DNA of 64,000 nucleotides, taken from positions 11,732-75,731 of the forward strand of contig CAWDPF010000012.1 in the NCBI GenBank assembly GCA_963804125.1, written 5' to 3'. Shown one piece after another: positions 41,245 to 53,855 of the stretch. The notes below the pieces were generated by a model. That model was not told the DNA's origin. It did no database searches and worked only from the letters and a program-made list of their open reading frames with translations. Position 1 is the first letter of the stretch; every line of letters starts with the position of its first letter. The position numbers and the translations under genes are program-made. Origin of the DNA: an uncultured Gemmatimonadales bacterium. Lineage in GTDB: Bacteria > Gemmatimonadota > Gemmatimonadetes > Gemmatimonadales > GWC2-71-9.

Positions 41245-41502
41245 ATGTCCAAAGACCCTGAGCCGACCGCCTCCCCGCGCGCCCCGAAGCTCCTGGACCA
41301 GGCGCGCCAGGCCGTCCGCCTCCGTCACCTCAGCCGCCGGACCGAGGAGAGCTACATCGCGTGGATCCGCCGCTACGTCCGCTTCCATGCGCTTCGCCAC
41401 CCGCGTGAGCTCGGGGCGGCCGACGTCACCCGGTTCCTCGCGTCGCTCGCCGAGGCGGGGCGGCTCAGCGCCTCGAGCCAAACGCAGGCGCTGAGCGCTC
41501 GT
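41245..41502 (+). pseudogene. intI: Integron integrase, N-terminal domain only (truncated)
   Basis: KLLDQARQAVRLRHLSRRTEESYIAWIRRY..HPRELG...SASSQTQALSA, then abrupt loss of similarity; no catalytic domain. Confidence 0.9.
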
Positions 41503-41637
41503 GGCGACTGGCGGCCAGCGGCGATTCACTCTTGGGCGAGACGCGCCTGTTCTTCGACGTCGGCCCGACCGAGTCGGTCGTTGGTGCGGCCTGGGCTCGG
41601 CGAGCCACCTGTGACGCGTAGAGATCTCCCGGCTGCG

Positions 41638-41766
41638 GCCTAACCCGCTAATGCAGCCGCCAAACGCGGGCGGGGGCCGAAGCTCCAGGGCTGTCGACGC
41701 TCCCAGCTGCGACAAAGGATCGTAGGTTATCAGGGTCGTTTGCAGCTGATTAGCCATTCGTTAGGC
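41638..41766 (+). repeat. attC site
   Basis: GCCTAAC...ATGCAGCCG...TGCAGCTGAT...GTTAGGC. Confidence 0.92.
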
Positions 41767-41779
41767 CGTCAGCCCCGGG

Positions 41780-42323
41780 CTATGGTCTGTCACGGCGATA
41801 CTCCAGTCGAGTGACGAGCTGCCAGGTCGTGCCACCATCGGGGGATAGTTCGGTCTCCGTGGTGACCGCATCGCCTGTCAGGACCCGGTACGTCAGTCGA
41901 AGGCGGAGAATGCGGTCCCCCAGGTTCCGGCTCCATTCGAACCGCAGCGGGTGTACCCGAGTATCCGCCTCAAACAGCAGCAGCGCGCCGTGGTCGGAGT
42001 CCTGCCACACCCGCTGTAGAGAGTCGGCGCCAACTGCAGCGATGAGGCTTATCGCGTGAAAGCCACGACCCGAGCGGGTACCCTCAAACCGTTCCAGAAG
42101 TCCGCACCCTCCCGCTGCGGACTCTATGGTGGCTCGGGCTTCTGAGGTGACGTACCGCTCGGGCGCGACTCGGTCGAGCCAAGTAACGCGCCAGCCTCCT
42201 CCCATGATGGCAAGCGGAGCCAGCGCCTGCGGCGGGCACGCTGATGCCTGAGGGACCTGGCCGGAGGCTGGACCCGGAAAGGCAGTCGAACTCAGGGTGG
42301 CGCTGAGCAGATAGATACGCCAT
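41780..42323 (-). CDS. Cassette gene in inverted orientation, DUF1579-like beta protein (5' end frameshifted or uncertain)
   Basis: ORF 41780..42205 ending ELSPDGGTTWQLVTRLEYRR. Confidence 0.6.
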
Positions 42324-42410
42324 AGGGAAGGCAGCGTAAGGCTCTCACCGTTGGGGGCGAAGTCCCTACGAGGACTTGAGTGGGCGGGTGCCAGCGCTCG
42401 GCACGCTGCG

Positions 42411-42551
42411 GCCTAACGCGCGCATGCAGCCGACAGGCCGGTAAGGCCAGAGCTCCTCTCGGGCGGCGAGCTCCCTGTGGCCGGGCAGAGGAAGCGGAGG
42501 TTTGTGCGGGCGCGGGCCGATGGCCTGCAGCTGATGCGCATTTCGTTAGGC
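42411..42551 (+). repeat. attC site
   Basis: GCCTAAC...ATGCAGCCGAC...TGCAGCTGATGCGC...GTTAGGC. Confidence 0.92.
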
Positions 42552-42669
42552 GGCTGCCACCGAATGCGGCGACGCCACGAAGCCTCGTGGTGGCGTGACT
42601 AAGGCTATGCGGGTAAGACCGGCGAGCTTGTCTTTGGGGATTCCAAAGGATTCCAGAGGAGGCACCATT

Positions 42670-43161
42670 ATGGGTGGTCGATCTCGCGGCATCGCGCTGG
42701 CGGGAGTCGGGGCTGTGATCACTGGGATCCTACTGACAGTAGCACTGCAGGGTGAAAGATCGGTCTCGCAGCTCGGAGGGGGACGCCGCGTGATTCGAGC
42801 GGGGCCGAACACGGGAGGCCTTCCCTATAGCCCGGGCATCCTTGTTGGCAACACGCTCTATCTGGCGGGGGCCATAGGAGAGGACGCAGCCAATAACATC
42901 GTTCCCGGTGGAATCCAAGCGGAGACGCGCCAAGCCCTCGCCAACGTGGGCGAAGTGCTGAAGGCCGCCGGTATGAGTTTTCAGGACGTCACGTCCGTGA
43001 CCGTGTACATCACCAGCTTCGATGACTTCGCCGGTTTCAACCAGGTTTACCAAAAGGTCTTTTCGACTAATCCGCCTGCAAGAGCTACCGTGCAGGTTGC
43101 TGCGCTGATTGGTGGAGCAAGGGTCGAATTACAGATGGTCGCTGTAGAACCTCACCCTTAA
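42670..43161 (+). CDS. RidA/YjgF family protein with N-terminal hydrophobic segment
   Basis: PYSPG, TRQALAN, FNQVY, PPARATVQV, VEL. Confidence 0.9.
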   Translation: MGGRSRGIALAGVGAVITGILLTVALQGERSVSQLGGGRRVIRAGPNTGGLPYSPGILVGNTLYLAGAIGEDAANNIVPGGIQAETRQALANVGEVLKAAGMSFQDVTSVTVYITSFDDFAGFNQVYQKVFSTNPPARATVQVAALIGGARVELQMVAVEPHP

Positions 43162-43231
43162 AACGGAATCCTTCGCGCCCCGTGTCGTGCGACGCTGTAA
43201 GCTTCCGGTAGCCGCAGTGCCTCCGGCAGCC

Positions 43232-43360
43232 GCCTAACCCGCTAATGCAGCCGACAAACGCGGGCAGAGCGGCGCTCCTCGGCTGACGGCGCTCCCGGTG
43301 GGGCTGTGGACCATAAGTTTTGCAAGTGGTCGTTTGCAGCTGATTAGCATTTCGTTAGGC
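43232..43360 (+). repeat. attC site
   Basis: GCCTAAC...GTTAGGC with conserved L boxes. Confidence 0.92.
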
Positions 43361-43420
43361 GGACGCGCGAGCATTTTGGTAGGATAAGACACGACTGGCA
43401 TCACTATCGCGGATACGTGC

Positions 43421-43516
43421 ATGCATTCAGGCCAAATCGTTTCTGATTGCGACGGCACCTTGGTCGACAGCAAACCCGGCGCGAACACGGTCTGGCTGGA
43501 AGTCGCTGCCGAGTGA
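43421..43516 (+). pseudogene. 31-codon HAD-hydrolase N-terminal remnant
   Basis: MHSGQIVSDCDGTLVDSK...; its stop overlaps the GTG of the next gene. Confidence 0.55.
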
Positions 43517-44874
43517 CTCATATTCCATTTGCCACCACCGGCGCCTACCCGGTGCGTGCTGGCAATCGCGTCCACCCGCTCATTGATGGCGAGCCTGCAT
43601 TTCGCCGGGTGTGTGATGCCATTGATCAAGCCCAAGCGCGGGTGTGGGTCGCTGTCACGTTTCTCTGGGCCAGCTTTCAGATGCCCGATGGTCGCGGTTC
43701 GTTCTTTGACGTGCTGACACGAGCGCGCCAGCGTGGACTCGACGTCCGGGTGCTATTTTGGCGACCTGACGGGGCGACCGCACATCTGCGGACTAACGCG
43801 TTCTGGGGGTCGCCCGCACATGTCGGGCTGCTGGAGCAGCAGGCATCGGAGATCAGCGTTCGCTGGGATCGCGCGCATCCTGGATTCTGTCAGCATCAAA
43901 AATTCTGGCTCATTGACGTTGGGTTGGAAACGGCCTGTGCATTTGTCGGTGGCATCAATCTCAATCCCCATTCGGTGGTTGCCCCCGGCCATCGTGGCGC
44001 TGAACACAATCACGACATGTATCTCGAGATCAGCGGTTCGGCGGTCACAGACGTCCACCACAACTTTGTGCAACGCTGGAACGAGGCCAGCGAACGGGAC
44101 GAAGCGGACGGTCGGTGGGGACTCGATGCTGATCGCGATCTCACCTTTCCAGACCGGGTAGCGGTGGCACGGGGGCCGACTGTCGCCCAAGTGCAACGGA
44201 CGATCCATCCTGGTCGCTACGCCAACACCCACCCCACTCCCGGCGGGGCTCCGTTTGCCATCGCTGACGGCGAGTTCTCCAATCGCGACCAGTACGTCCA
44301 TGCCATCCGTGCTGCCCGTGAGTATATCTATCTTGAGAACCAAGCCATCAGTGTGCGGCCAATCCTTGAAGAGCTTGTAGCCGCGGTGAAGCGCGGCGTG
44401 GCGGTCGTCCTAGTGTTGCCGACCGTGGCCAGCAGCATCGACGCACCTGCGGATCGCCGCGGTGAGCGGTTCCGTGACGAACGCCGCACGCTGGCGCGCA
44501 CGTCGCATTTCACTCTAGCAGGACTGGCCGGACCAGATGCCAGTGGTGCACGCCAACCCGTTCACGTGCATGCCAAACTTATGATCATTGATGATGTCTG
44601 GGCGACGGTCGGCTCCTGCAACCTCCACCGATATTCCATGTATGGTAACAGTGAGCTCAACATCGCCTTCGCCGATGCGGTGACGGTGCGCGCATTACGC
44701 TGCGAACTCCTAGCGGAGCATCTCGAACAGGACACATCCGCGCTCGATGGTCGATCGGCGCTCTGCGTGTTTCGGACCGTGGCTGAGCAGAATGCGGGTC
44801 GCCGGGACGGTGGAGATCCCGACTGGGAAGGAATCGCCTGCGCGATGGATCCACTTCAGTGGTGGGCAGGCTGA
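43513..44874 (+). CDS. Phospholipase D family protein (two HKD motifs)
   Basis: HQKFWLID and HAKLMIID...GSCN. Confidence 0.9.
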   Translation: MTHIPFATTGAYPVRAGNRVHPLIDGEPAFRRVCDAIDQAQARVWVAVTFLWASFQMPDGRGSFFDVLTRARQRGLDVRVLFWRPDGATAHLRTNAFWGSPAHVGLLEQQASEISVRWDRAHPGFCQHQKFWLIDVGLETACAFVGGINLNPHSVVAPGHRGAEHNHDMYLEISGSAVTDVHHNFVQRWNEASERDEADGRWGLDADRDLTFPDRVAVARGPTVAQVQRTIHPGRYANTHPTPGGAPFAIADGEFSNRDQYVHAIRAAREYIYLENQAISVRPILEELVAAVKRGVAVVLVLPTVASSIDAPADRRGERFRDERRTLARTSHFTLAGLAGPDASGARQPVHVHAKLMIIDDVWATVGSCNLHRYSMYGNSELNIAFADAVTVRALRCELLAEHLEQDTSALDGRSALCVFRTVAEQNAGRRDGGDPDWEGIACAMDPLQWWAG

Positions 44875-44935
44875 ACGGCGCGATCGTCGGCCGGTCAATG
44901 ACAAGGAAGAGAACCCTAATATCTCGAGTGGCGCC

Positions 44936-45077
44936 GCCTAACCCGCAAATGCAGCCGACAGGCCGATCGGCGCGAGGCTCCGCCCGGGCGGCAACATCAC
45001 TGGCTGCGATGAGGAAGCGATAAATTGTGCGGGCGCGGGCAGTGTAGGGCCTGCAGCTGATTTGCATTTCGTTAGGC
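44936..45077 (+). repeat. attC site
   Basis: GCCTAAC...GTTAGGC. Confidence 0.92.
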
Positions 45078-45096
45078 CGACGCCGGAGATCTGGGA

Positions 45097-45531
45097 ATGC
45101 GGCTGTGGACCGTGCACCCGAAGTACCTGGACGCCCTCGGGCTGGTGGCTCTCTGGCGGGAGGCTCTGCTCGCCCGAGCAGTGCTTCGCGGCGGCACCCG
45201 GGGATACCGGCACCACCCCCAACTCACGCGATTCCGGGAGCAGGCGCGTCCAGTCGAGTCGCTGAACCATTACCTGGCTGCGGTGCATGCGGAGGCGTGC
45301 CGTCGCGGGTACGCGTTCGACCACCGGAAGCTCGGGCGTGCCCGCCCGGGCCTGCGCATCACGGAGACAACAGGACAATTGGCGGCCGAGTGGGTGCACC
45401 TGTTGAGTAAACTCCGGCAACGGGCACCGGAGCGTTACCAACAGCTGATGACGACTCGGCATCCGGCCGCTCACCCACTATTCCGCATGGTTCGGGGTCA
45501 TGTGCGTGCCTGGGAGCGCAGCGCGGCCTAA
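45097..45531 (+). CDS. Pyrimidine-dimer DNA glycosylase (DenV-like) family protein
   Basis: MRLWTVHPKYLD...LWREALLA...GYRHHPQL; stop codon lies in attC R''. Confidence 0.85.
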   Translation: MRLWTVHPKYLDALGLVALWREALLARAVLRGGTRGYRHHPQLTRFREQARPVESLNHYLAAVHAEACRRGYAFDHRKLGRARPGLRITETTGQLAAEWVHLLSKLRQRAPERYQQLMTTRHPAAHPLFRMVRGHVRAWERSAA

Positions 45532-45651
45532 CCCGCTAATGCAGCCGAAACGCGGGCGACGCGGGGCGCCACCCGCGTCCGACTCTCCCAGTGGGGGTCT
45601 GGACCATAGGTTGCCACAGGTCGTTTGCAGCTGATTAGCCATTCGTTGGAC
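45526..45651 (+). repeat. attC site
   Basis: GCCTAAC...GTTGGAC. Confidence 0.9.
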
Positions 45652-45684
45652 GGCAGGGCCACGATCCTCGAAGGGCGAGATACG

Positions 45685-46101
45685 ATGGTCGAGTTCAAGA
45701 GTCCTGAACGCCTCCCGGCGAGCGTCAAACTGGCAGCAGCGCTGTTCGTCGCGTACGGCCTAGCGGTGGTCCTCAACGCGACCGTGATGCAAGCGGCGGG
45801 CGGGTGGGGCGCGGCGCGCGACTTCCCGCGAGCGATTCTGCGACTGATCGGGACTGGCATCATCGCGTGGGGCCTGCTCCGACGGGCGCGGTGGGCTTGG
45901 TGGTTGGGACTCGTTTTGGCCGTGTTCTGGCTCTCGGCTGGGGCGCTCGCCGTCCTCGTTCTGGAACGAGGGGATGTCTACTGGCTGTCGCCCAGTGGTT
46001 TTCAGACGTTTCTCGTGGTGTCGCTCGTATGTCTCGGCGCGGCGGTGGCGTTGCTCATCTCGCCCTCGGCGCGCGCGGTGTTCCGGCGGCCTGCCGTCTA
46101 A
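45685..46101 (+). CDS. Hypothetical membrane protein (about 4 TM)
   Basis: Hydrophobic ORF with stop in attC R''. Confidence 0.75.
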   Translation: MVEFKSPERLPASVKLAAALFVAYGLAVVLNATVMQAAGGWGAARDFPRAILRLIGTGIIAWGLLRRARWAWWLGLVLAVFWLSAGALAVLVLERGDVYWLSPSGFQTFLVVSLVCLGAAVALLISPSARAVFRRPAV

Positions 46102-46216
46102 CCCGCCAATGCAGCCGACAAACGCGGATGAGAGCCAAGCTCCGCACGTGTCCAGTCCTTCCAGCGGCGACAAAGGACCGTAGGTTCTCGCAGGTCGTTT
46201 GCAGCTGCTTGGCGCC
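46096..46216 (+). repeat. attC site lacking R' end
   Basis: GTCTAAC...TGCAGCTG with no following GTTRRRY. Confidence 0.75.
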
Positions 46217-46315
46217 GAGGTCACGGTGGGCGAGGCGATGAGCGGCTGGGTCTGGGCGACCAATCCGGATGGGCAGGCGGGTTGGATCCCGACGACATGC
46301 ATCACTCCAGTGTGA
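46214..46315 (+). pseudogene. 3' remnant of an SH3-like domain cassette gene
   Basis: AEVTVGEAMSGWVWATNPDGQAGWIP. Confidence 0.5.
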
Positions 46316-46329
46316 AGGCGGGCGGTGCC

Positions 46330-46467
46330 GCCTGGCCCGCGCATGCAGCCGCCGGGCCGGTCGGGCACGGGCTGCCGTGCGGGCGGCGCCATCCGGTGGA
46401 GCCGTTAGGGAGGCGTAGGCTCGGGCAGGCGCGGGCACGATGGCCCGCAGCTGATGCTGAGGTCCAG
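46330..46467 (+). repeat. Degenerate attC site
   Basis: gcctggcccgcgcatgcagccg...cgcagctgatgc; both core sites mutated. Confidence 0.7.
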
Positions 46468-47142
46468 ATGGATTTCGATACCAACATCCGGCTGGCGGTC
46501 TACCAGCACTTCGTGAGTACAGGGCGGGCGCCCCTGGTTGCCCACGTTGCCGCCGAATGCGCTTGTTCTACGGAGGATGTTCGAGCAAGCTATGCCCGCT
46601 TGCGGGTGAATCGCGTTCTGCTCCTTGACCTGGACGGCACGACCATTCGCATGGCTCCACCCTTTTCCGGAGTACCCACGCCGCACACGGTGGAGCTGGG
46701 GCGGCGAACGTACTTCGCCAACTGCGCCTGGGACGCACTGGGCATTCCGGCCGCCTTGCATCAAGAGGCGGTCGTGCACTCGCGCTGCGGGCAGTCGGGC
46801 ACCACTCTCCGTCTCCGCGTCGGTCTAAGGGGGCCGGAGCCCAGCCAATGGCTCTTCCACTGCCAAGTCCCAGCGGCGCGCTGGTGGGCGGACCTGGTCT
46901 TCACCTGAAGCACGATGCTCTTCTTCCGGTCGGAAGAACTCGTGAATGCGTGGTGCCAAGCGCGCGACATTGCCCGGCGACCGCTGGTGACCATGGAGCA
47001 GCTGTGGCAACTGGCGGTCACCTGGTACGACAGTCGGCTATCGCCGGAGGCGAGGCGCCCAGGTCCAGACGAGATGCGACGGATCTTTGCTGGGATTGGG
47101 TTGGACGATCCGTTCTGGGATCCACAGGCCGACAGTTTCTAG
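46468..47142 (+). CDS. merB: MerB-like organomercurial lyase, probable selenoprotein (in-frame TGA at 46906-46908)
   Basis: HTH N-terminus, YFANCAWDALG motif, WADLVFT-TGA-STMLFFRSEE continuing in frame; SECIS-like hairpin downstream. Confidence 0.8.
46909..46944 (+). promoter_or_regulatory. Bacterial SECIS-like element
   Basis: CACGA..TTCTTCC-GGTC-GGAAGAA.TCGTG hairpin; loop starts 19 nt after the UGA. Confidence 0.72.
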
Positions 47143-48376
47143 GTTGAGCGTCTCAGGTGTTGGGTAACAGGTGTTATCACCTGACAGGTGACAGGTGACA
47201 GGTGGCGTTCGCGTTGGCTGCGGCCGCGGCGGTCGTGAATCCGGTAGTCGCGTTCGTCGAGCCAGCCGAGGTGGATCGGTCCAAAGAACACATTCCAGGT
47301 GCCGCTCGCCAGGGGTTCGAGCGCGACCGGCAGCGTCGCCAGGATGTGCGAGACGTTCACCCAGCGTTTCTGCCACCGAATGCCACCGTTGGTCGACACG
47401 CGCCGGATCTCGAAGTGCTCCGGGTAGCCGATCGGCCGGAGGCGTGGCACGTAGAGTCGATCGGACGGCGTATAGAGCGCCGCGGGCCGCCGCTGGCGGA
47501 GCGCCTCATGCGGGCGGACCTCGTTGTAGATCCGGCGGAAGGTGTCGAAGCGCCGCTGCTGGGCACCGAAGGAGGCCGCGGCGGCGGGCCGCGTGGTCTC
47601 GGCCTTGAGATCGCGATGCATGCGCTTGTGCCGCCCGTTCTGCTGGGGGTGGGCCGGCTCGATGAGCTCGGGGCGGATGCCGAGCCGGAGCCACCAGACG
47701 CTGAGCTGGGACAGGCGGCCGAGCGCACAGGAGGCGAAGGGCTGCCCATGGTCCGAGCGGATGCGCTCGGGGAGCCCGTAGGTGCGAAAGAGTCGGCGAA
47801 AGACCTGCTGCGTGGGCGCGAGCAGCGGACCCTCGAGGCCCTCGCAGGCGAGCAGATAGCGGAATAGGCGTCCTGGACGGTGAGCGGGTAGCAGTACCGG
47901 CCGGTGCCCAGCTTGAACTGGCCCTTGAAGTCGACCGACCAGACCACATTGGGGCCGGTAATCGGCGTCTGCGGGCGGCCAGGATGGGCGCGCACGCGGG
48001 AGCGCCGACGGCGACGGACCCGCCCGTGCCGCACGAGAATGCGGTGAATGGTCGGGATGGCCGGCACCGGCTCCCCGGGATGCGCCTCGCAGAGCAGCTC
48101 GTAGAGCTTGCGGGCGCCCCAGCGCCAGGTGCGGCGCAGCGCGAGGATCTCGCGGATCACGGCCGGCGCGGTGGCATGGGGACAGGCCGCGGGCCGATGG
48201 GAGCGATCGATCAGACTGTCGGGGCCGAGCCGAGCGTAGCGGTCGAGCCACTTGTACCCGGTCTTGCGGCTGATGCCGTAGCGCCGGCAGAGCTCGGCGA
48301 AGGCGGCGGAGGTGTGCTCGGCATCGAGCACGAAACGCTGGCGCTCGTACATGGGTGACGTGACTCTCCACGGCAT
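47139..48376 (-). CDS. IS481-family DDE transposase (frameshift near 47865)
   Basis: MPW start, GISRKTGYKW, WSVDFKG, IRSDHGQPF, PQQNGRHKRMHR, YNEVRPHEAL. Confidence 0.9.
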
Positions 48377-48461
48377 CGGAGCCTCCTCTGAGGCTCCTAG
48401 GTTATGGGAGTGTCACCCATCAGGTGATAACAACCTGTCACCCATCAGCTGAGACTGTACC
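47143..48461 (-). mobile_element. IS481-family insertion sequence
   Basis: About 45 bp imperfect terminal inverted repeats (gtctcaggtgttgggtaacagg... / ...cctgtcacccatcagctgagac). Confidence 0.85.
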
Positions 48462-48469
48462 GGTTCGCA

Positions 48470-48605
48470 GCCTAACCCGCGCATGCAGCCGACAAGCGCT
48501 TCCGGGTATGGCTCCGGTGTCCGCCACCCGCCGCCGGCGGGCGACGGAACGCAGGATAGTGCATGAGCGAGCGAGTCGCTGCAGCTGATGCGCAAGTCGT
48601 TAGGC
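48470..48605 (+). repeat. attC site (of the merB cassette)
   Basis: GCCTAAC...GTTAGGC. Confidence 0.92.
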
Positions 48606-48631
48606 CGACTCCACCCGAGATCGGAGACCTT

Positions 48632-48880
48632 GTGGCTACTCGAGAGGGACTCCGGGTCATCGCGACCCTGATCGGAGGAGGCGTCCTGGCCTACGCCGCC
48701 CTGGTGGTCGTTCGAGGAACGCTCTATGACGTGGACGACGGGCGCGTCGACCGGAGCGCCCGCCCGGTGACCTTCTGGCTCTTGGTGGGAGGGATAACGC
48801 TCCTCGGGTTGTCAATCATAGGTGTGGGTTGGGGGTGGCCGCTGGTGAGTGCGGTGGGCTCGGCTCCTGACCCGCCCTGA
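48632..48880 (+). CDS. Small membrane protein
   Basis: Two hydrophobic segments; GGAG RBS. Confidence 0.6.
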   Translation: MATREGLRVIATLIGGGVLAYAALVVVRGTLYDVDDGRVDRSARPVTFWLLVGGITLLGLSIIGVGWGWPLVSAVGSAPDPP

Positions 48881-48983
48881 AGCGAGCTTCGGGCTGCGCG
48901 ATGCTCCGCCCGCCGGTGCGCGCCGAGGGCTGCCAGCGGAACGAAGGTGTTCTCAAGTTGCCACTCCAAGGGAGGATCGCCCC

Positions 48984-49457
48984 ATGCGCTGCTTCCCGCT
49001 GCTTGCCGGTGGGCTCCTGAGTCTCGTAGACGCCTCGGCAACCCATGCACAGAGATCCGACACCCTGCCAGTCCGAGTGGTCGAGCGGATGTTGGACGCC
49101 TTCGACCGCGGCGATGTGACGGCCCGGAGCACGCTGTACGATTCGGTCTACTACTTCCAAGATCTCATGGTGCCGCACCGAGGAGATCCCAATCGGCCGC
49201 CGGCGATGTCGGCCTCGGAGCGCGCTCGCGCGTGGCAGGCCGATATCGCCAAGATGGGGTCGGATCTACCACGTCGCTCCCGAAAGGTCTTGCAGCGCAT
49301 GGTCGCCGGCCGATTCGTAGTCTATCACATCGCCGTACTCTTCGAGCCACCCCACGAGGACCAAACCTTCGAAAAGCTTGAGGTCTACGAGGTGAAGAAC
49401 GGGAAGATCGTCGCCGAGTACGATGGGCAGGGCGTTGCCAGCGGACGTCCTCAGTAG
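48984..49457 (+). CDS. Secreted NTF2/SnoaL-like protein
   Basis: Signal peptide, VVERMLDAFDRGD, VYEVKNGKIV. Confidence 0.75.
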   Translation: MRCFPLLAGGLLSLVDASATHAQRSDTLPVRVVERMLDAFDRGDVTARSTLYDSVYYFQDLMVPHRGDPNRPPAMSASERARAWQADIAKMGSDLPRRSRKVLQRMVAGRFVVYHIAVLFEPPHEDQTFEKLEVYEVKNGKIVAEYDGQGVASGRPQ

Positions 49458-49489
49458 GATGGCGGCCAGTAGCTTGTCGCAGCCGCGCC

Positions 49490-49585
49490 ACCTAACCCGC
49501 GCATGCAGTCGACAAGCGCGCCCGGGGGCGGCTGCCGACGAATGCGGCCCTCCGGTGTGGAGCGTGGGTTGCCGCCCGGTTAAGA
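49490..49585 (+). repeat. attC site with internal deletion (L' missing)
   Basis: ACCTAACCCGCGCATGCAGTCGAC...GTTAAGA. Confidence 0.65.
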
Positions 49586-49604
49586 CACGATGGGGAGGAC
49601 AGCG

Positions 49605-49880
49605 ATGCACGCCGCACTTATGCACTTGACCATTGACCCGGCGCTAGCACCCGCGGCGGCCGCTGCGTTTACCGATGAGCTATTACCTCGGGTGCGGACG
49701 GCACCGGGCTTCGTAGCCGGTTACTGGGTGGATCCGGTCGACCGCCAAGGCTTCGGGTTTGTGCTCTTCGAGACGGAGGGGCAAGCCCTCAAAGCAACGC
49801 CGCCAGCCACCAGCTGGTCAGCGCCCGGAGTGGTAGTCGTACGAGTAGATGTCCGACGGGTCGCGGTCGCCATACCGTAA
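49605..49880 (+). CDS. Dimeric alpha/beta-barrel (ABM-like) protein
   Basis: LPRVRTAPGFVAGYW. Confidence 0.65.
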   Translation: MHAALMHLTIDPALAPAAAAAFTDELLPRVRTAPGFVAGYWVDPVDRQGFGFVLFETEGQALKATPPATSWSAPGVVVVRVDVRRVAVAIP

Positions 49881-49902
49881 TGTGAGTGGCGGACCACATG
49901 AC

Positions 49903-50046
49903 GCCTGACCCACGCATGCAGCCGCCAGGCCGGGGTGGGCCAGGGGCTCCCCGCGGGCGCGTGGCTCATTGAGGCCAAGTAGCGCAAGCATTGATTTGTG
50001 CGGCCGCGAGCATGATCGCCTGCAGCTGATGCGCCATTCGTTAGGC
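49903..50046 (+). repeat. attC site
   Basis: GCCTGAC...TGCAGCTGATGCGCCATTC-GTTAGGC. Confidence 0.85.
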
Positions 50047-50148
50047 GGACGATCATGTCCACAGACTCGAGCGGCTCACTTTGTGGTACCGATTAAGGAC
50101 CAACAGGGAGCTCATCGAGTGTCTGAAACGCAACGTCAGGAGCCTATC

Positions 50149-50538
50149 ATGAAGCTCAGGGCAGTGCTGACAGTTTCGGCGATTTACCAGGCTATTATTG
50201 GCGTCGGGATGATGCTCGTTCCCCGGCAGTTCGGTATCGGTGCCGTCCCGCCGGACGCCTCCCCCGCGCTGGTCCACTTCCTCCGAATCTTCGGCGGTCC
50301 CATGCTTGGGATTGCAGTGCTGAACTGGATCGGTCGGAACGCGGAGCCTTCCACAGCGCGAAACGCCATTGTCCTTGCCAATATCGTGGGGTTTGGTTGC
50401 GTAGCTCTCGTGGACGTATGGGGTGTGTTCAGCGGTGGCGCGCGCCCGATTGCGAAACTGTTCCTTGTCATTCATCTGCTTTTGACTGCCGCCTTTGTCG
50501 TTGCATGGCGGACCAACATGCGGACCCCGCGCGGTTAG
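50149..50538 (+). CDS. Hypothetical membrane protein (about 4 TM)
   Basis: AGGAG RBS; hydrophobic ORF. Confidence 0.75.
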   Translation: MKLRAVLTVSAIYQAIIGVGMMLVPRQFGIGAVPPDASPALVHFLRIFGGPMLGIAVLNWIGRNAEPSTARNAIVLANIVGFGCVALVDVWGVFSGGARPIAKLFLVIHLLLTAAFVVAWRTNMRTPRG

Positions 50539-50565
50539 GTTAGACCGTTAGACGGTAAAGGCACC

Positions 50566-51012
50566 ATGTTCACGATTCTGTCCCGTTTCGAGATCGCCGT
50601 CACCGTTGGCGTGCTCGGTGCGATCGGGCTGGTGGGAATCGGTCGGTCCCTTGCTCCGCGCCGCGAGTTGCTTGTGTACGGCGTCGGCCTCGGCATCACC
50701 GCCGTCGCCTACCTTGTGCACGGCGTGCAACGCGAGGCTCCAGCGAGCCATCTCGGCCTGGAGCTAGTCGGCGCGGGGATCTTTGGCATTGCTGCCGTCC
50801 TTGGCACCAGGCGGTGGCCCGCTCTCTTGGCGCTTGGCTATACGGCCCACGTGGCATGGGACCTCTTCTTCCACTATGCGAGAGGTCTGGCATTCGCGCC
50901 GGCCTGGTACCCGTGGTTTTGCGTCGGCTTCGACCTCTTCATCGGAGGGTATGTCGCGGGCCTGGTCGCAGCCAGACAACACGTCTCTGCTACCGAGCCG
51001 CCCGCCACCTAA
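50566..51012 (+). CDS. Membrane protein (DUF6010-like)
   Basis: HVAWDLFFH...PAWYPWFCVGFD. Confidence 0.7.
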   Translation: MFTILSRFEIAVTVGVLGAIGLVGIGRSLAPRRELLVYGVGLGITAVAYLVHGVQREAPASHLGLELVGAGIFGIAAVLGTRRWPALLALGYTAHVAWDLFFHYARGLAFAPAWYPWFCVGFDLFIGGYVAGLVAARQHVSATEPPAT

Positions 51013-51068
51013 CGCATTCGCTAGCTGGGCTATTCGACATGGCATTCCGGCAGGAGACTCGGCGGAAG

Positions 51069-51629
51069 ATGGAGCATAAACCGACGAAGACTGAGATCGC
51101 GGCTGCGGTCGGAAAAACGGTCCCGGATTTGATCGCTCCCGGACTGGCCGTCCTCTTCTGCGGCATCAACCCTGGGCTGTACTCAGGTGCTACCGGTCAT
51201 CACTTCGCTCGACCGGGCAACCGATTCTGGCCTACTCTTCATGCAGCCGGCTTTACGGACCACCCGGTACGGCCATGGGAAGAGAGACGGCTCTTGGGGT
51301 ATGGCTTGGGTATCACGAATCTCGTAGCCCGAGCGACAGCAACCGCGGCAGAACTCGAACCCGACGAACTGCGGGCCGGGCGAGCGCGGCTCGAGCGGAA
51401 GGTCCGTCGCTTCCGTCCGCAAGCGGTGGCGGTGCTGGGGATCGGCGCATATCGGTTGGCTTTCAACCTCCCCAGGGCTCCCGTCGGCCGCCAGTCGGCG
51501 TCGCTGGGCCCAGCCGAGCTTTGGGTGCTGCCCAACCCAAGCGGACTCAATGCGAGCCACCAGCTTCGTGATCTCGTGCGAGCCTTTGGGGAGCTCCGGG
51601 CGCTTCTAGACAGGCGCCGGGCGGGCTAG
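51069..51629 (+). CDS. mug: G/U mismatch-specific DNA glycosylase
   Basis: FCGINPG, HHFARPGNRFW, LPNPSGLN. Confidence 0.92.
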   Translation: MEHKPTKTEIAAAVGKTVPDLIAPGLAVLFCGINPGLYSGATGHHFARPGNRFWPTLHAAGFTDHPVRPWEERRLLGYGLGITNLVARATATAAELEPDELRAGRARLERKVRRFRPQAVAVLGIGAYRLAFNLPRAPVGRQSASLGPAELWVLPNPSGLNASHQLRDLVRAFGELRALLDRRRAG

Positions 51630-51631
51630 CC

Positions 51632-51697
51632 GCCTAACAAGCGTATGCAGCCGACGGACCGGAGGTGTCCCGAGCTCCGCTCAGGCGCTTCGTCGCC
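51632..51697 (+). repeat. attC left half
   Basis: GCCTAACAAGCGTATGCAGCCGAC; next R' (GTTAGGC) only at 52582-52588. Confidence 0.75.
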
Positions 51698-52468
51698 TCA
51701 TGCCCTCAACAGCGGAAGGAGCACGCCGATCAGCACGCTCGCACCATCCATTAGGGCATGCGCAATCGCCAACGGAACCAGCCGGCGAAGTCGCAGATAC
51801 ACACACGTTAGGAACACCGAGTACGGCACCGCCGATAACAGCCGAAAAGCCATGAACCTCGCATCAAAGGTCAATGGCATGAAAGCGTGCTGCAACGACC
51901 AGACGAATGCCACAATTGCGATCGCCAGACTCGCACTCCGGCAAAGAACTTGGAAGCGGGGCAGCAGATAGCCATTGTAGGTCATCTGCTCGGTCAGCCC
52001 CCAGATGAACGGGAACACCAGCACGCCATAGAGAGCGGCCGGCAATGGCAGGGCCCCGAAGAGGTACGGCCCCGTGAGCGTCCCGTACAACAGCCAACCG
52101 GCCCCATAGGTGCCACCAAGAATGAATACGAGGCTGGCAGGGATGAGCGCGAGGCCGAGAAGTACATCGCGGCCGAGACGCGTCCGCTCGAAGCCGACAA
52201 GATCGAACAGCCGGATGCCCTCGCGGCGTGTGAGCCGCCACAGCAACGCCAGGCATCCGGCATCGACCAAGGTCCCGTACACCGGCAGCCATGGCTCAGC
52301 GTCATGCCATGGAGTCGGCGACGATCGCAGGGCGAGGACGGCTGCGACCACGGCTTGTGCACCCACGGCACAAGCTGCGCGTGCAAACAGCATCAGTGCC
52401 GGGCCGCGCCATGTAAGCGCTCCTTTGTTCAGCCGGCGAAGGAGGGCCTCGTAGGAATTCGGGTCCAT
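51698..52468 (-). CDS. CPBP (CAAX protease / Abi) family intramembrane protein
   Basis: TEQMTYNGYL (EExxxR variant), FVWSLQH, AHALMD. Confidence 0.78.
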   Translation of the reverse strand: MDPNSYEALLRRLNKGALTWRGPALMLFARAACAVGAQAVVAAVLALRSSPTPWHDAEPWLPVYGTLVDAGCLALLWRLTRREGIRLFDLVGFERTRLGRDVLLGLALIPASLVFILGGTYGAGWLLYGTLTGPYLFGALPLPAALYGVLVFPFIWGLTEQMTYNGYLLPRFQVLCRSASLAIAIVAFVWSLQHAFMPLTFDARFMAFRLLSAVPYSVFLTCVYLRLRRLVPLAIAHALMDGASVLIGVLLPLLRA

Positions 52469-52475
52469 CGTGCCA

Positions 52476-52518
52476 ATTGTAGTATCCTAAGAAAACCGTG
52501 CACAAGTGACTCTTGTGC
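52476..52518 (-). promoter_or_regulatory. Putative leaderless promoter with overlapping inverted repeat
   Basis: TTGTGC, 18 bp spacer, TACAAT, 7 bp, ATG; GCACAAG-N5-CTTGTGC palindrome. Confidence 0.5.
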
Positions 52519-52622
52519 GAGCCCTCGAACGAGTCAGGCGTGATTGTTGTTCTGCTATGTGGCTGAAGAAACCGCCGCTTCGTTAGGCGGCACCGTGGAG
52601 TTCCTCCCTCGACGAGGATACG

Positions 52623-53086
52623 ATGGGTTCTCGGACGCGGTACGTTCAGTTCGTGATCTCCGCACTCCTCCTGGTCGTTGGCACTAACAGCGCCGTGTCC
52701 CAGCAGCCGGCGGATTCGGGCGCGAGCGCCGCGACGGCGGTCGTTGAGGGCTACCTCGCCGCCTACAACCGCCATGATGCGCCGGGCCTCCGCCGCTGGC
52801 TGGCCGATACCTTGTGCTCGGCGGGGTGCCCGCCGGGCCGTCGGATGAGTGGCTCATCCCAGGCACCTTGGTGCGCCGCCTTCAGGGGGTATTCGAGCAC
52901 TCGCCCGACCTGCGGGCCCACCTGCTGGGGCGGCTCAGCCAAGGTGGCGATGTCGTGGACCGCTATAGGATCACATTCGGGAAGAAGACCGTGTTCGAGT
53001 TGTTCATCTATCGTGTCAAGGCAGGCCGTATCACGGGGATGTGGGAGTTTCGCGCGGACTCCGCTGCGGTCACCAAGAAGGGGTAG
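52623..53086 (+). CDS. Secreted NTF2/SnoaL-like protein (frameshift near 52815)
   Basis: VVEGYLAAYNRHD; IYRVKAGRI. Confidence 0.7.
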
Positions 53087-53115
53087 ATTTCGGCGGCGCG
53101 CCGCATAATCAGCAA

Positions 53116-53427
53116 ATGCAGCCGACAGACGAGCATCTCGCGATCGTCAGCTGGCTTCGCTTGGATAAGGAAGGCAGGCCTGACTTGCCGCACGCCTTGC
53201 GGTACACCGGCATCAGCCGGTTCGATACCGATGGCGCAGAGTGGCCGGACGGAGCATACAGCGTGGTCTGTGCGTTCGCGGAGCCCTTGTCGGAACATGG
53301 AAGTCCGATTGAGGCGAAAGTCAAATTCCTCGTTGACAACGCCCCGCACGAGCGCTTAGCCGCGGGAGTAAAGTTTCGCCTGTATGAGGGGCCACATGAA
53401 GTCGCCCGGGTCGAGGTCCTTTGGTGA
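53116..53427 (+). CDS. Hypothetical protein (EF-Tu C-terminal-like beta fold possible)
   Basis: ORF ending FLVDNAPHERLAAGVKFRLYEGPHEVARVEVL; ATG lies in an attC L'' box. Confidence 0.6.
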   Translation: MQPTDEHLAIVSWLRLDKEGRPDLPHALRYTGISRFDTDGAEWPDGAYSVVCAFAEPLSEHGSPIEAKVKFLVDNAPHERLAAGVKFRLYEGPHEVARVEVLW

Positions 53428-53515
53428 GCGGCCGTAGGTCTTCACCAGTCGTTGCAGCCGATTACCATTTCCTTAGACATGCAGGCCACTGGCATCTGAG
53501 TCATACGGAGGGCGC

Positions 53516-53737
53516 ATGCCCGACGTGTCGCACCCGTTGCGGCGCTCCAGGACAAATCGACAGATCGCCGGAGTTGTCGGCGGCCTCGCCGAATACTTCC
53601 GGGTAGACGCTACGTTGCTGCGTGTTATCTACGTCGTGGGCTCGATCGTCTCAGCGGCGTTCCCAGGCGTGCTTGTCTACCTCTTGCTCTGGCTACTGAT
53701 ACCGGAGGCTGAGGGTACAGCGGGGCCTGACGCCTGA
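53516..53737 (+). CDS. pspC: PspC domain protein
   Basis: LRRSRTNRQIAGVVGGLAEYF...YLLLWLLIP. Confidence 0.9.
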   Translation: MPDVSHPLRRSRTNRQIAGVVGGLAEYFRVDATLLRVIYVVGSIVSAAFPGVLVYLLLWLLIPEAEGTAGPDA

Positions 53738-53855
53738 CCCTGAATGCACGTCAAGCGCGGATACGGCGACGCGCCTGAGCTAACCACCTCCCAGCGGGTC
53801 TGTCGACCATGAGGTTGTAAGCGGTCGTTTGCAGCCGATTGGCATTTCGTTAGGC
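53732..53855 (+). repeat. attC site (partly diverged)
   Basis: GCCTGAC...TGCAGCCGATTGGCATTTC-GTTAGGC. Confidence 0.8.

Follow-up and report, generated by a model that had tools for sequence, protein, structure and literature searches.

The locus described here raises the question of whether a TGA codon that interrupts a reading frame at the position of a catalytic cysteine ends a gene or encodes selenocysteine (Sec). It lies in a stretch of 64,000 nucleotides (nt) from an uncultured Gemmatimonadales bacterium (contig CAWDPF010000012.1; the whole stretch is referred to as the window, and positions are counted from its first letter), and the frame in question would specify a protein related to MerB, the enzyme of organomercurial cleavage. 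We consider it highly probable that this is a MerB-family selenoprotein, with decoding by SelB via a hairpin, a MerB-type active site and organometal chemistry, and that it belongs to a cassette-borne clade. As judged from the comparison of sequences, the stop codon at the catalytic Cys position almost certainly encodes Sec.

Reading frame and start of the gene

The gene comprises the following features:
46468–47142, plus strand: putative MerB-like selenoprotein gene, 224 codons followed by TAG, with one in-frame UGA
46459–46462, plus strand: GAGG, Shine-Dalgarno-like, 5 nt ahead of ATG 46468 (read from the sequence)
46723–46725, plus strand: TGC, Cys86, equivalent of MerB Cys96 (alignment to MerB and MerB2)
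46732–46734, plus strand: GAC, Asp89, equivalent of MerB Asp99 (alignment to MerB and MerB2)
46906–46908, plus strand: UGA, predicted Sec147, equivalent of MerB Cys159 (alignment; TGA conservation)
46921–46938, plus strand: putative core of the selenocysteine insertion sequence (SECIS), a 7-bp stem UUCUUCC/GGAAGAA with a GGUC loop (comparative conservation, fold)
46911–46944, plus strand: lower stem CACGA/TCGTG (46911–46915/46940–46944; local fold), unconserved

A single frame runs from ATG 46468 to TAG 47140–47142 and is broken only by TGA 46906–46908. The preliminary description had seen here two open reading frames (ORFs) that share a frame and are parted by TGA-AGC-ACG, a layout that held on re-reading: the ORF 46282–46908 closes with TGA 46906–46908, AGC ACG lie in between, and the same-frame ORF sets out from ATG 46915, the letters after the TGA being AGC ACG ATG CTC TTC TTC CGG TCG GAA GAA. 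Read through, the product has 224 amino acids, and we are dealing with one intact gene, not with two short genes. Since the N-termini of homologues read MDFDT... and GAGG is found 5 nt upstream, the gene starts at ATG 46468, not at TTG 46282 of the mechanically derived ORF. The leader GCTGAGGTCCAGATG also precedes an 89%-identical gene in another locus, L020.

MerB fold and active site

Computation places the read-through protein in the MerB family, with 107.7 bits against Pfam MerB PF03243 (cut-off 27; E 5.2e-31; residues 66–187); its scores for the NCBIfam MerB equivalogs NF009710 and NF033555 are 54.5 bits (cut-off 193) and 49.2 bits (cut-off 200). The best solved relatives in sequence alignment are MerB2 (5c17, E 2.5e-9) and MerB. 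The MerB Cys/Asp pair, which had been assigned to the NCAWD motif together with a distal second position, is borne out by the alignments to MerB and MerB2: C86 and D89 are aligned with their counterparts, and residue 147 aligns with the distal catalytic Cys (MerB Cys159) of both enzymes, the third position of the triad thus being UGA (Sec) instead of Cys. NCAWD occurs in 80/80 genome loci, and the position of Asp89 is variable among Cys-form relatives.

An AlphaFold model computed from an alignment of 51 sequences (A3) reached a predicted local distance difference test score (pLDDT) of 96.4 and a predicted template modelling score (pTM) of 0.92. It forms one MerB domain across the UGA junction, where the pLDDT is 96–98. 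All 11 matches that Foldseek returned from the PDB at E<=0.001 were MerB or MerB2 chains, the best being 5c17 (E 1.3e-11, template modelling (TM) scores 0.65/0.70), with alignments spanning about 190–200 columns. In A3, C86 and C147 are among only four invariant columns, and positions F153, W162, Y187, G211, L212, F216 and W217, all beyond the UGA, are conserved to at least 90%; since these seven downstream positions remain so conserved, coding appears to go on past the UGA.

In two metagenome loci, L135 (601–1272) and L150 (601–1209), Ser replaces Cys86 (FANS[AT]WD), with TGA and hairpin kept. Their contig names hint at related data sets, and Ser86 could be an error or mark an inactive variant.

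UGA at the catalytic column

The loci compared were the best 80 of 315 genome loci and the best 80 of 116 metagenome loci. TGA stands at the column in 81/81 sequences formed by the window and the 80 loci from species-representative genomes, which cover at least ten phyla (Gemmatimonadota, Acidobacteriota, Verrucomicrobiota, Chloroflexota, Eisenbacteria, Planctomycetota and others), and in 80/80 metagenome loci, adding up to 161/161. A database search yielded 3828 relatives; 117 of the 120 best cover just 64–65% of the query, and those aligned stop at ...LVFT, near residue 146, in agreement with the earlier expectation that gene callers would split the gene. Among the 150 best representatives of 50%-identity clusters, 70 stop exactly at residue 146, 43 have Cys and three have Trp at column 147, and the others are either fragments or calls with a shifted frame.

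Of 401 genomes sampled evenly from the phylum, 56 contained a relative, with 57 matches in all: 53 with exactly one TGA, three full-length without a stop and one partial. The TGA lies at the aligned column in 17/17 distant UGA forms (31–47% identity), and the three no-stop forms all carry TGC there. The in-frame UGA is thus conserved, and Cys takes the same column, the one aligned to Cys159 of MerB and MerB2, in some homologues; apart from rare Trp, the homologues show UGA or Cys, as the preliminary description would have it. The genetic code seems to be unchanged, because TGA also serves as the gene's own terminator in 27/79 loci. Contigs from four soil sequencing runs (85% likeness; relatives, not the source sample) span 46882–46950, and no differing letter is listed for 46881–47001.

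The hairpin downstream of UGA

The hairpin consists of TTCTTCC (46921–46927), GGTC (46928–46931) and GGAAGAA (46932–46938), and 19 nt (46909–46927) separate the UGA from the loop. Folded on its own, this part of the window gives −18.8 kcal/mol with a z-score of −1.85, and 12 of 200 shuffled sequences fold equally well. Since the lone sequence folds only slightly better than shuffled ones and does not by itself point beyond chance, the case for the hairpin rests on comparison with relatives. In the 81 sequences its codons are nearly frozen, with Phe TTC in 80/80 and 80/81, Arg CGG in 80/81 and Ser TCG in 80/81, whereas four to five synonyms are in use for nearby Arg codons and free variation is seen at the Val, Phe and Thr codons that precede the UGA. 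The sole structure predicted by RNAalifold was the 7-bp stem capped by the GGUC loop. In an alignment of 37 sequences (A2) the upper stem is paired in 98.1% of cells, the lower stem CACGA/TCGTG in just 55.1%; of the hairpin originally delineated after the TGA, the upper stem, the GGTC loop and the 19-nt spacing therefore stand, but the lower stem is not a feature of the family.

With the distant forms added, the stem is paired in 92.1% of cells compared with 47–64% in slid controls. Compensatory changes occur at three pairs, and 16 cells are altered on both sides versus 4.7 ± 2.4 in shuffled alignments (0/500 reach this number); in 20 sequences pair 26–41 is U-A, in seven C-G, and pair 25–42 is C-G in nine and U-A in seven. 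CC-GGUC-GG is kept in 14 of the 17 distant UGA forms. Pairing, synonymous constraint and covariation, all computed from the alignments, agree with the expectation that UGA-bearing homologues keep the hairpin, which appears to be under selection. Its stem-loop is conserved beyond coding needs, as is appropriate for a bacterial SECIS (bSECIS), whose usual distance and loop criteria we presume here. When the whole genome was scanned for TGA with a downstream stem of 6 bp or more and a GGTC tetraloop, four candidates emerged, of which only the MerB-like gene was protein-like.

Two side observations concern the loop. In L204, L205 and L212, which are about 40% identical, the stem is kept with the loops CGGGAC (two) and CGUGCA (one), which hints at a second putative SECIS loop type in the family. 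The Cys form L217 (TGC; genome G203) has a 7-bp hairpin with a GCAC loop at the equivalent place, which may have survived from a Sec ancestor or arisen by chance; the SelA-positive genomes listed for the phylum sample do not include G203.

Selenocysteine machinery of the host

The host genome (G000) comprises 20 contigs with 2.95 Mb and is rated 65% complete. The relevant loci are:
C16:199277–200363, strand not stated: selA, split over two frames
C9:13977–14903, strand not stated: selD, split over four frames
C2:235184–237064, minus strand: FdhA, formate dehydrogenase alpha subunit, with one in-frame TGA (...CNRT-U-HAPS...)

A search for the Sec genes, called for by the preliminary description, detected all four: selA, the SelB winged-helix domain, selD and a tRNA-SeC with anticodon TCA, selA and selD being frame-split. 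A MerA-like oxidoreductase (C2:251839–253195) and the transposase of an insertion sequence (IS) in the window are frame-split as well, which reflects either an indel-rich assembly or several decaying genes; as many genes of this assembly are split in this way, indel errors are plausible. A search for rpoB, meant to gauge gene breakage, gave no match in the incomplete host genome.

FdhA appears to be a second selenoprotein gene of the host. Its hairpin resembles that of the MerB-like gene in having a 7-bp stem after the UGA and a loop starting with GGUC, at a spacing of 18 nt versus 19 nt. The two differ in stem sequence and in loop size, the loop being 5 nt in FdhA (GGUCU) and 4 nt here; the tetraloop scan missed FdhA on account of its 5-nt loop. 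Presumably the hairpin also resembles the SECIS of E. coli fdhF, a likeness cited in the preliminary description.

In the phylum sample, SelA occurs in 52/52 genomes with a UGA form versus 324/401 overall (paired up by eye; related genomes do not count as independent). This co-occurrence is a weak test because SelA is common (81%) in the phylum. The tallies 56/401 and 324/401 include two genomes flagged as unpublished, G157 and G057, neither of which carries the gene. SelA was further found in 24/24 genomes of the same genus and in 4/5 carrier genomes of other phyla. Column content, hairpin and Sec machinery together lend support to the original proposal of Sec at the distal Cys position of a 224-amino-acid MerB-like protein.

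Comparison with known systems

The preliminary description had mentioned that Sec-containing MerB-like proteins were already reported. This is correct in that SaoL, a MerB-like selenocysteine-assisted organometallic lyase (NF040728; Haft & Gwadz, 10.1101/2022.07.06.499078), exists and is listed in the reviews PMC9312934 and PMC13188914; SaoL is, however, a different family. It resembles the window protein in its MerB fold, in Sec at the Cys159 equivalent, in database calls ending at the UGA and in an uncertain substrate. It differs in having the motif CU, whereas the window protein reads F-T-U, as in all 80 genome loci. SaoL lies in the nine-gene SAO locus, whereas the window family has no shared neighbour in 79 loci (SAO families were not searched by name) and the gene is flanked here by unrelated cassettes. 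According to the preprint, SaoL occurs only in anaerobes (10.1101/2022.07.06.499078); the window family is found in Gemmatimonadota, Acidobacteriota, Verrucomicrobiota, Chloroflexota and others from soil metagenomes and, unlike SaoL, is often an integron cassette. Identity with SaoL was considered and rejected, the window protein scoring 43.6 bits with NF040728 (cut-off 140), matching only with residues 7–118 and carrying FTU, not CU.

With MerB and MerB2 (3F0P, 3F2F, 5C17) the protein shares PF03243, the fold (TM 0.57–0.70) and the aligned Cys-x-x-Asp and distal positions, but it has Sec for the distal Cys, about 20–22% identity in fold alignments and no mer operon. The family would be a second, independent MerB-type lineage with predicted Sec at the metal-binding Cys159 position. 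Our literature search brought up SaoL as the only MerB-like selenoprotein and found no description of this MerB-like clade nor of a selenoprotein gene cassette, and supplementary tables may list more candidates; in the portions of the integron papers covered, only a selenocysteine lyase is mentioned, and no selenoprotein cassette.

Distribution of the family and association with integron cassettes

To detect attC sites in the homologous loci, a covariance model was used, which replaced three earlier approaches: a scanner requiring R''/R' to be paired in the minimum-energy fold, which was too strict (two sites downstream and two upstream in 80 loci); an arm-alignment scanner, which reported 7/80 loci (controls 0/385 and 4/400) and gave low scores to the known attC sites of the window; and nhmmer with attC half-sites, which had little sensitivity. 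With the covariance model, an attC starts about 7–9 nt past the stop of the gene in L025, L039, L070, L088 and L096 (E<=0.001), and weaker matches lie at the same place in L021, L092, L068, L028 and L073 (E 0.014–0.15). On the plus strand, attC matches at E<=0.01 were obtained in 12/80 genome loci and 9/80 metagenome loci; the sole independent minus-strand match at this threshold was in L074. These counts are lower bounds because the model was built mostly from Gemmatimonadota attC sites. The carriers flanked by attC include Gemmatimonadota, Acidobacteriota and a Verrucomicrobia bin.

Clustering of the neighbours in 79 loci revealed no conserved partner, and no neighbour gene is common to more than 4/79. 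In the gene tree, phyla group beyond chance, but 23 label changes are needed versus a minimum of 10. The attC-flanked Verrucomicrobia copy L039 falls within a Gemmatimonadota clade, to which binning errors could contribute. On this comparative evidence, the family is a large, mainly soil-bacterial clade that is often found as a one-gene integron cassette.

The cassette array and the copy in the window

The surroundings of the gene comprise:
41245–41643, plus strand: integron integrase (intI) remnant, N-terminal SAM-like domain only (TIGR02249 positions 1–70, 64.4 bits; Phage_int_SAM_4, E 1.8e-20)
41638–53855, plus strand: attC cassette array, ten model matches (repeats, pairing, covariance model)
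46096–46221, plus strand: attC with degenerate R' end (attC covariance model R1, 59 bits, E 5e-13)
46330–46469, plus strand: degenerate attC immediately before the gene, R'' GCCTGGC, no GTTRRRY R' box (R1, 40.9 bits, E 3.8e-8)
47152–48453, minus strand: IS481-family element, ends approximate (Pfam LZ_Tnp_IS481, HTH_32, rve_3; transposase in two frames)
48470–48605, plus strand: closing attC, GCCTAAC ... GTTAGGC (R1, 98.5 bits; pair counts)

The ten attC matches start at 41638, 42411, 43232, 44936, 45526, 46096, 46330, 48470, 49903 and 53732, and the plus-strand repeats between 41.6 and 53.9 kb open with GCCTAAC and close with GTTAGGC. Computed over 12 attC sites, the R''/R' and L''/L' helices with an unpaired base are 93.5% paired, as opposed to 16–45% when slid, and compensatory changes are found at 10 pairs. 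The intI remnant shares the strand with the cassettes and borders immediately on the first attC; elsewhere in the host genome, on a different contig, there is a second partial match to intI (C3:115392–115565). Cassette ORFs include RidA, PLD-like, Pyr_excise (pyrimidine-dimer glycosylase), SnoaL_2 and UDG (Pfam). The array resembles chromosomal attC arrays in its R''/L''...L'/R' sites, the extrahelical base and one short ORF per cassette with mostly accessory functions, and it departs from usual arrays in that only the N-terminal domain of intI is left, on the strand of the cassettes, the 5' site lacks R', and an IS lies ahead of the 3' site.

The gene had been described as carried by an integron cassette. 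This reading holds at the level of the family and of the array, the attC array with its ten model sites being real, but it needs qualification for the window copy. A 3' attC with paired boxes is present, about 1.3 kb of IS sequence lying between it and the gene, whereas a 5' GTTRRRY crossover site is missing. As L020 keeps GTTAGGC before the same leader GCTGAGGTCCAGATG, the window copy appears to have lost its 5' crossover site. The IS, with inverted repeats at 47172–47193 and 48411–48432, follows the stop codon of the gene and precedes the next attC. With the 5' attC degenerate and an IS at the 3' end, the window copy is probably no longer an excisable cassette and looks fixed in place.

Some details of the array may be added. 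The 108 or so nucleotides between the two upstream attC-like sites (46222–46329) hold no ORF of note and may be an empty or decayed cassette. The terminal inverted repeats of the IS481 element look nested or doubled. A similar string, CACCTGATGGGTAACA, adjoins the R' box that precedes the gene in L020, which suggests that this type of IS may favour attC-proximal sites.

Proposed decoding and function

In the mechanism that we propose, the hairpin UUCUUCC-GGUC-GGAAGAA, which starts 13 nt after the UGA, would be bound by SelB carrying Sec-tRNA(Sec), and UGA 46906–46908 would then be read as Sec instead of stop. Sec147, Cys86 and Asp89 would form a MerB-type active site. The conserved triad and the fold point to organometal lyase chemistry, most likely protonolysis of a carbon–metal bond, be it in organomercurials or in some other organometal, where S and Se would hold the metal between them. 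Family membership, fold, the identity of the column, conservation of UGA and hairpin, covariation, the Sec machinery and the attC surroundings are established by computation; that Sec is indeed inserted, what the substrate is and that the host expresses the gene is what we infer.

Alternative explanations

Points that tell against our reading concern the decoding of the UGA, the activity of the window copy and the chemistry, and they are weighed here along with the alternatives. The simplest of these takes the TGA as a true stop that would leave a 146-residue piece and a 75-residue piece from ATG 46915, or a pseudogene. In its favour, gene callers annotate two pieces, and an ATG follows three codons past the TGA in 80/81 sequences. 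Yet the TGA occupies the exact catalytic Cys column in 161/161 sequences and still does so in relatives of only about 31% identity, Cys-form relatives are single chains, the model folds as one MerB domain, and synonymous constraint and covariation of the hairpin would be left without explanation, all of which makes a true stop exceedingly improbable. We give as little credence to a decoding of the UGA as Trp, Cys or Gly, be it via an altered code or via near-cognate read-through stimulated by the hairpin. The few database translations with Trp at the column (1/120 best relatives, 3/150 cluster representatives) would agree with it, but as these entries sit in Sec-type sequence contexts, they most simply represent TGA translated as W by the gene caller; a metagenome scan with one of them, the full-length P0002, failed to recover the contig that encodes it. 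The TGA terminates the same gene in 27/79 loci, the high-GC soil phyla concerned have complete Sec machinery, with SelA in 52/52 carriers, and the hairpin resembles that of the host FdhA, none of which favours a standard amino acid. Less comfortable for decoding as Sec are the three of 17 distant UGA forms that have another loop (GGGA-type in two, GUGC-type in one), one Verrucomicrobiae carrier of the UGA form (completeness not known) that gave no SelA match, and the Rfam search of 46700–47200 (E<=10), which returned no SECIS family and only a chance miRNA match in the IS repeat. Likewise, no sequencing run contained more than 0.14 of the words of the stretch, and no RNA run was among those listed.

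A different objection concerns activity and overlaps with our reading: the family could be a genuine selenoprotein family while the window copy is a silent or decaying passenger. The intI remnant covers model positions 1–70 only, the upstream attC is degenerate, the IS481 element occupies about 47152–48453, and selA and selD of the host assembly extend over two and four frames. A promoter and terminator scan of 45900–47300 found nothing, including no sigma-70-like promoter upstream; for this reason, and because several cassettes separate the gene from the intI remnant, it may be silent here. On the other hand, the intact ORF shares 89% identity with that of L020, all catalytic positions and the hairpin are kept, the IS lies outside the ORF, the frequency of frame-split genes in this assembly makes indel errors plausible, and SelA is present in 24/24 genomes of the same genus. 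We regard a passenger state as unlikely. More weight, if still short of an even chance, is due to the view that the MerB-fold selenoprotein has a role other than organomercurial cleavage, acting on another organometal or metalloid or binding and handing over a soft metal via Cys/Sec. No MerA above cut-off was detected in the 65%-complete host genome, and no merA, merR or merT/P adjoins the gene in 79 loci, consistent with the earlier remark that no mer operon is nearby; a role in mercury detoxification therefore receives no support from the genomic context. The NCBIfam MerB scores likewise fall far below their cut-offs, and an Hg–Se bond could hinder product release. Against this view stand the Cys-Asp-(Se)Cys triad in all Sec forms seen and the MerB fold match over about 190–200 columns. 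The SaoL preprint argues that Sec at this position may alter the range of substrates and that other metals, too, can be bound by MerB (10.1101/2022.07.06.499078), and these arguments on substrate range and other metals would favour another role here too. Going beyond the MerB-family selenoprotein reading itself, one may picture the clade as a mer-independent, Se-dependent lyase of organometals such as methylmercury that moves between abundant soil phyla as a self-contained cassette, works only in Sec-competent hosts, and would be the first selenoprotein cassette; we put this forward tentatively and with considerable doubt.

Implications

Thousands of database entries of the family end near residue 146, and for this reason annotations of common soil phyla lack the catalytic residue together with the final third of the protein. 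Because the bacterial SECIS sits inside the ORF, a selenoprotein gene can move as a one-gene cassette, whose usefulness then hinges on the Sec machinery of the recipient. A second Sec-bearing MerB-type lineage suggests that Se–metal chemistry is a recurring solution for the handling of carbon–metal bonds. The gene is frequent in Gemmatimonadota, Acidobacteriota and Verrucomicrobiota and occurs there without mer partners, which makes it a candidate for organometal turnover in soil. If the picture of a mer-independent lyase cassette were true, the family could be considered a candidate for the mer-independent breakdown of methylmercury by demethylation in soils, which is poorly explained so far.

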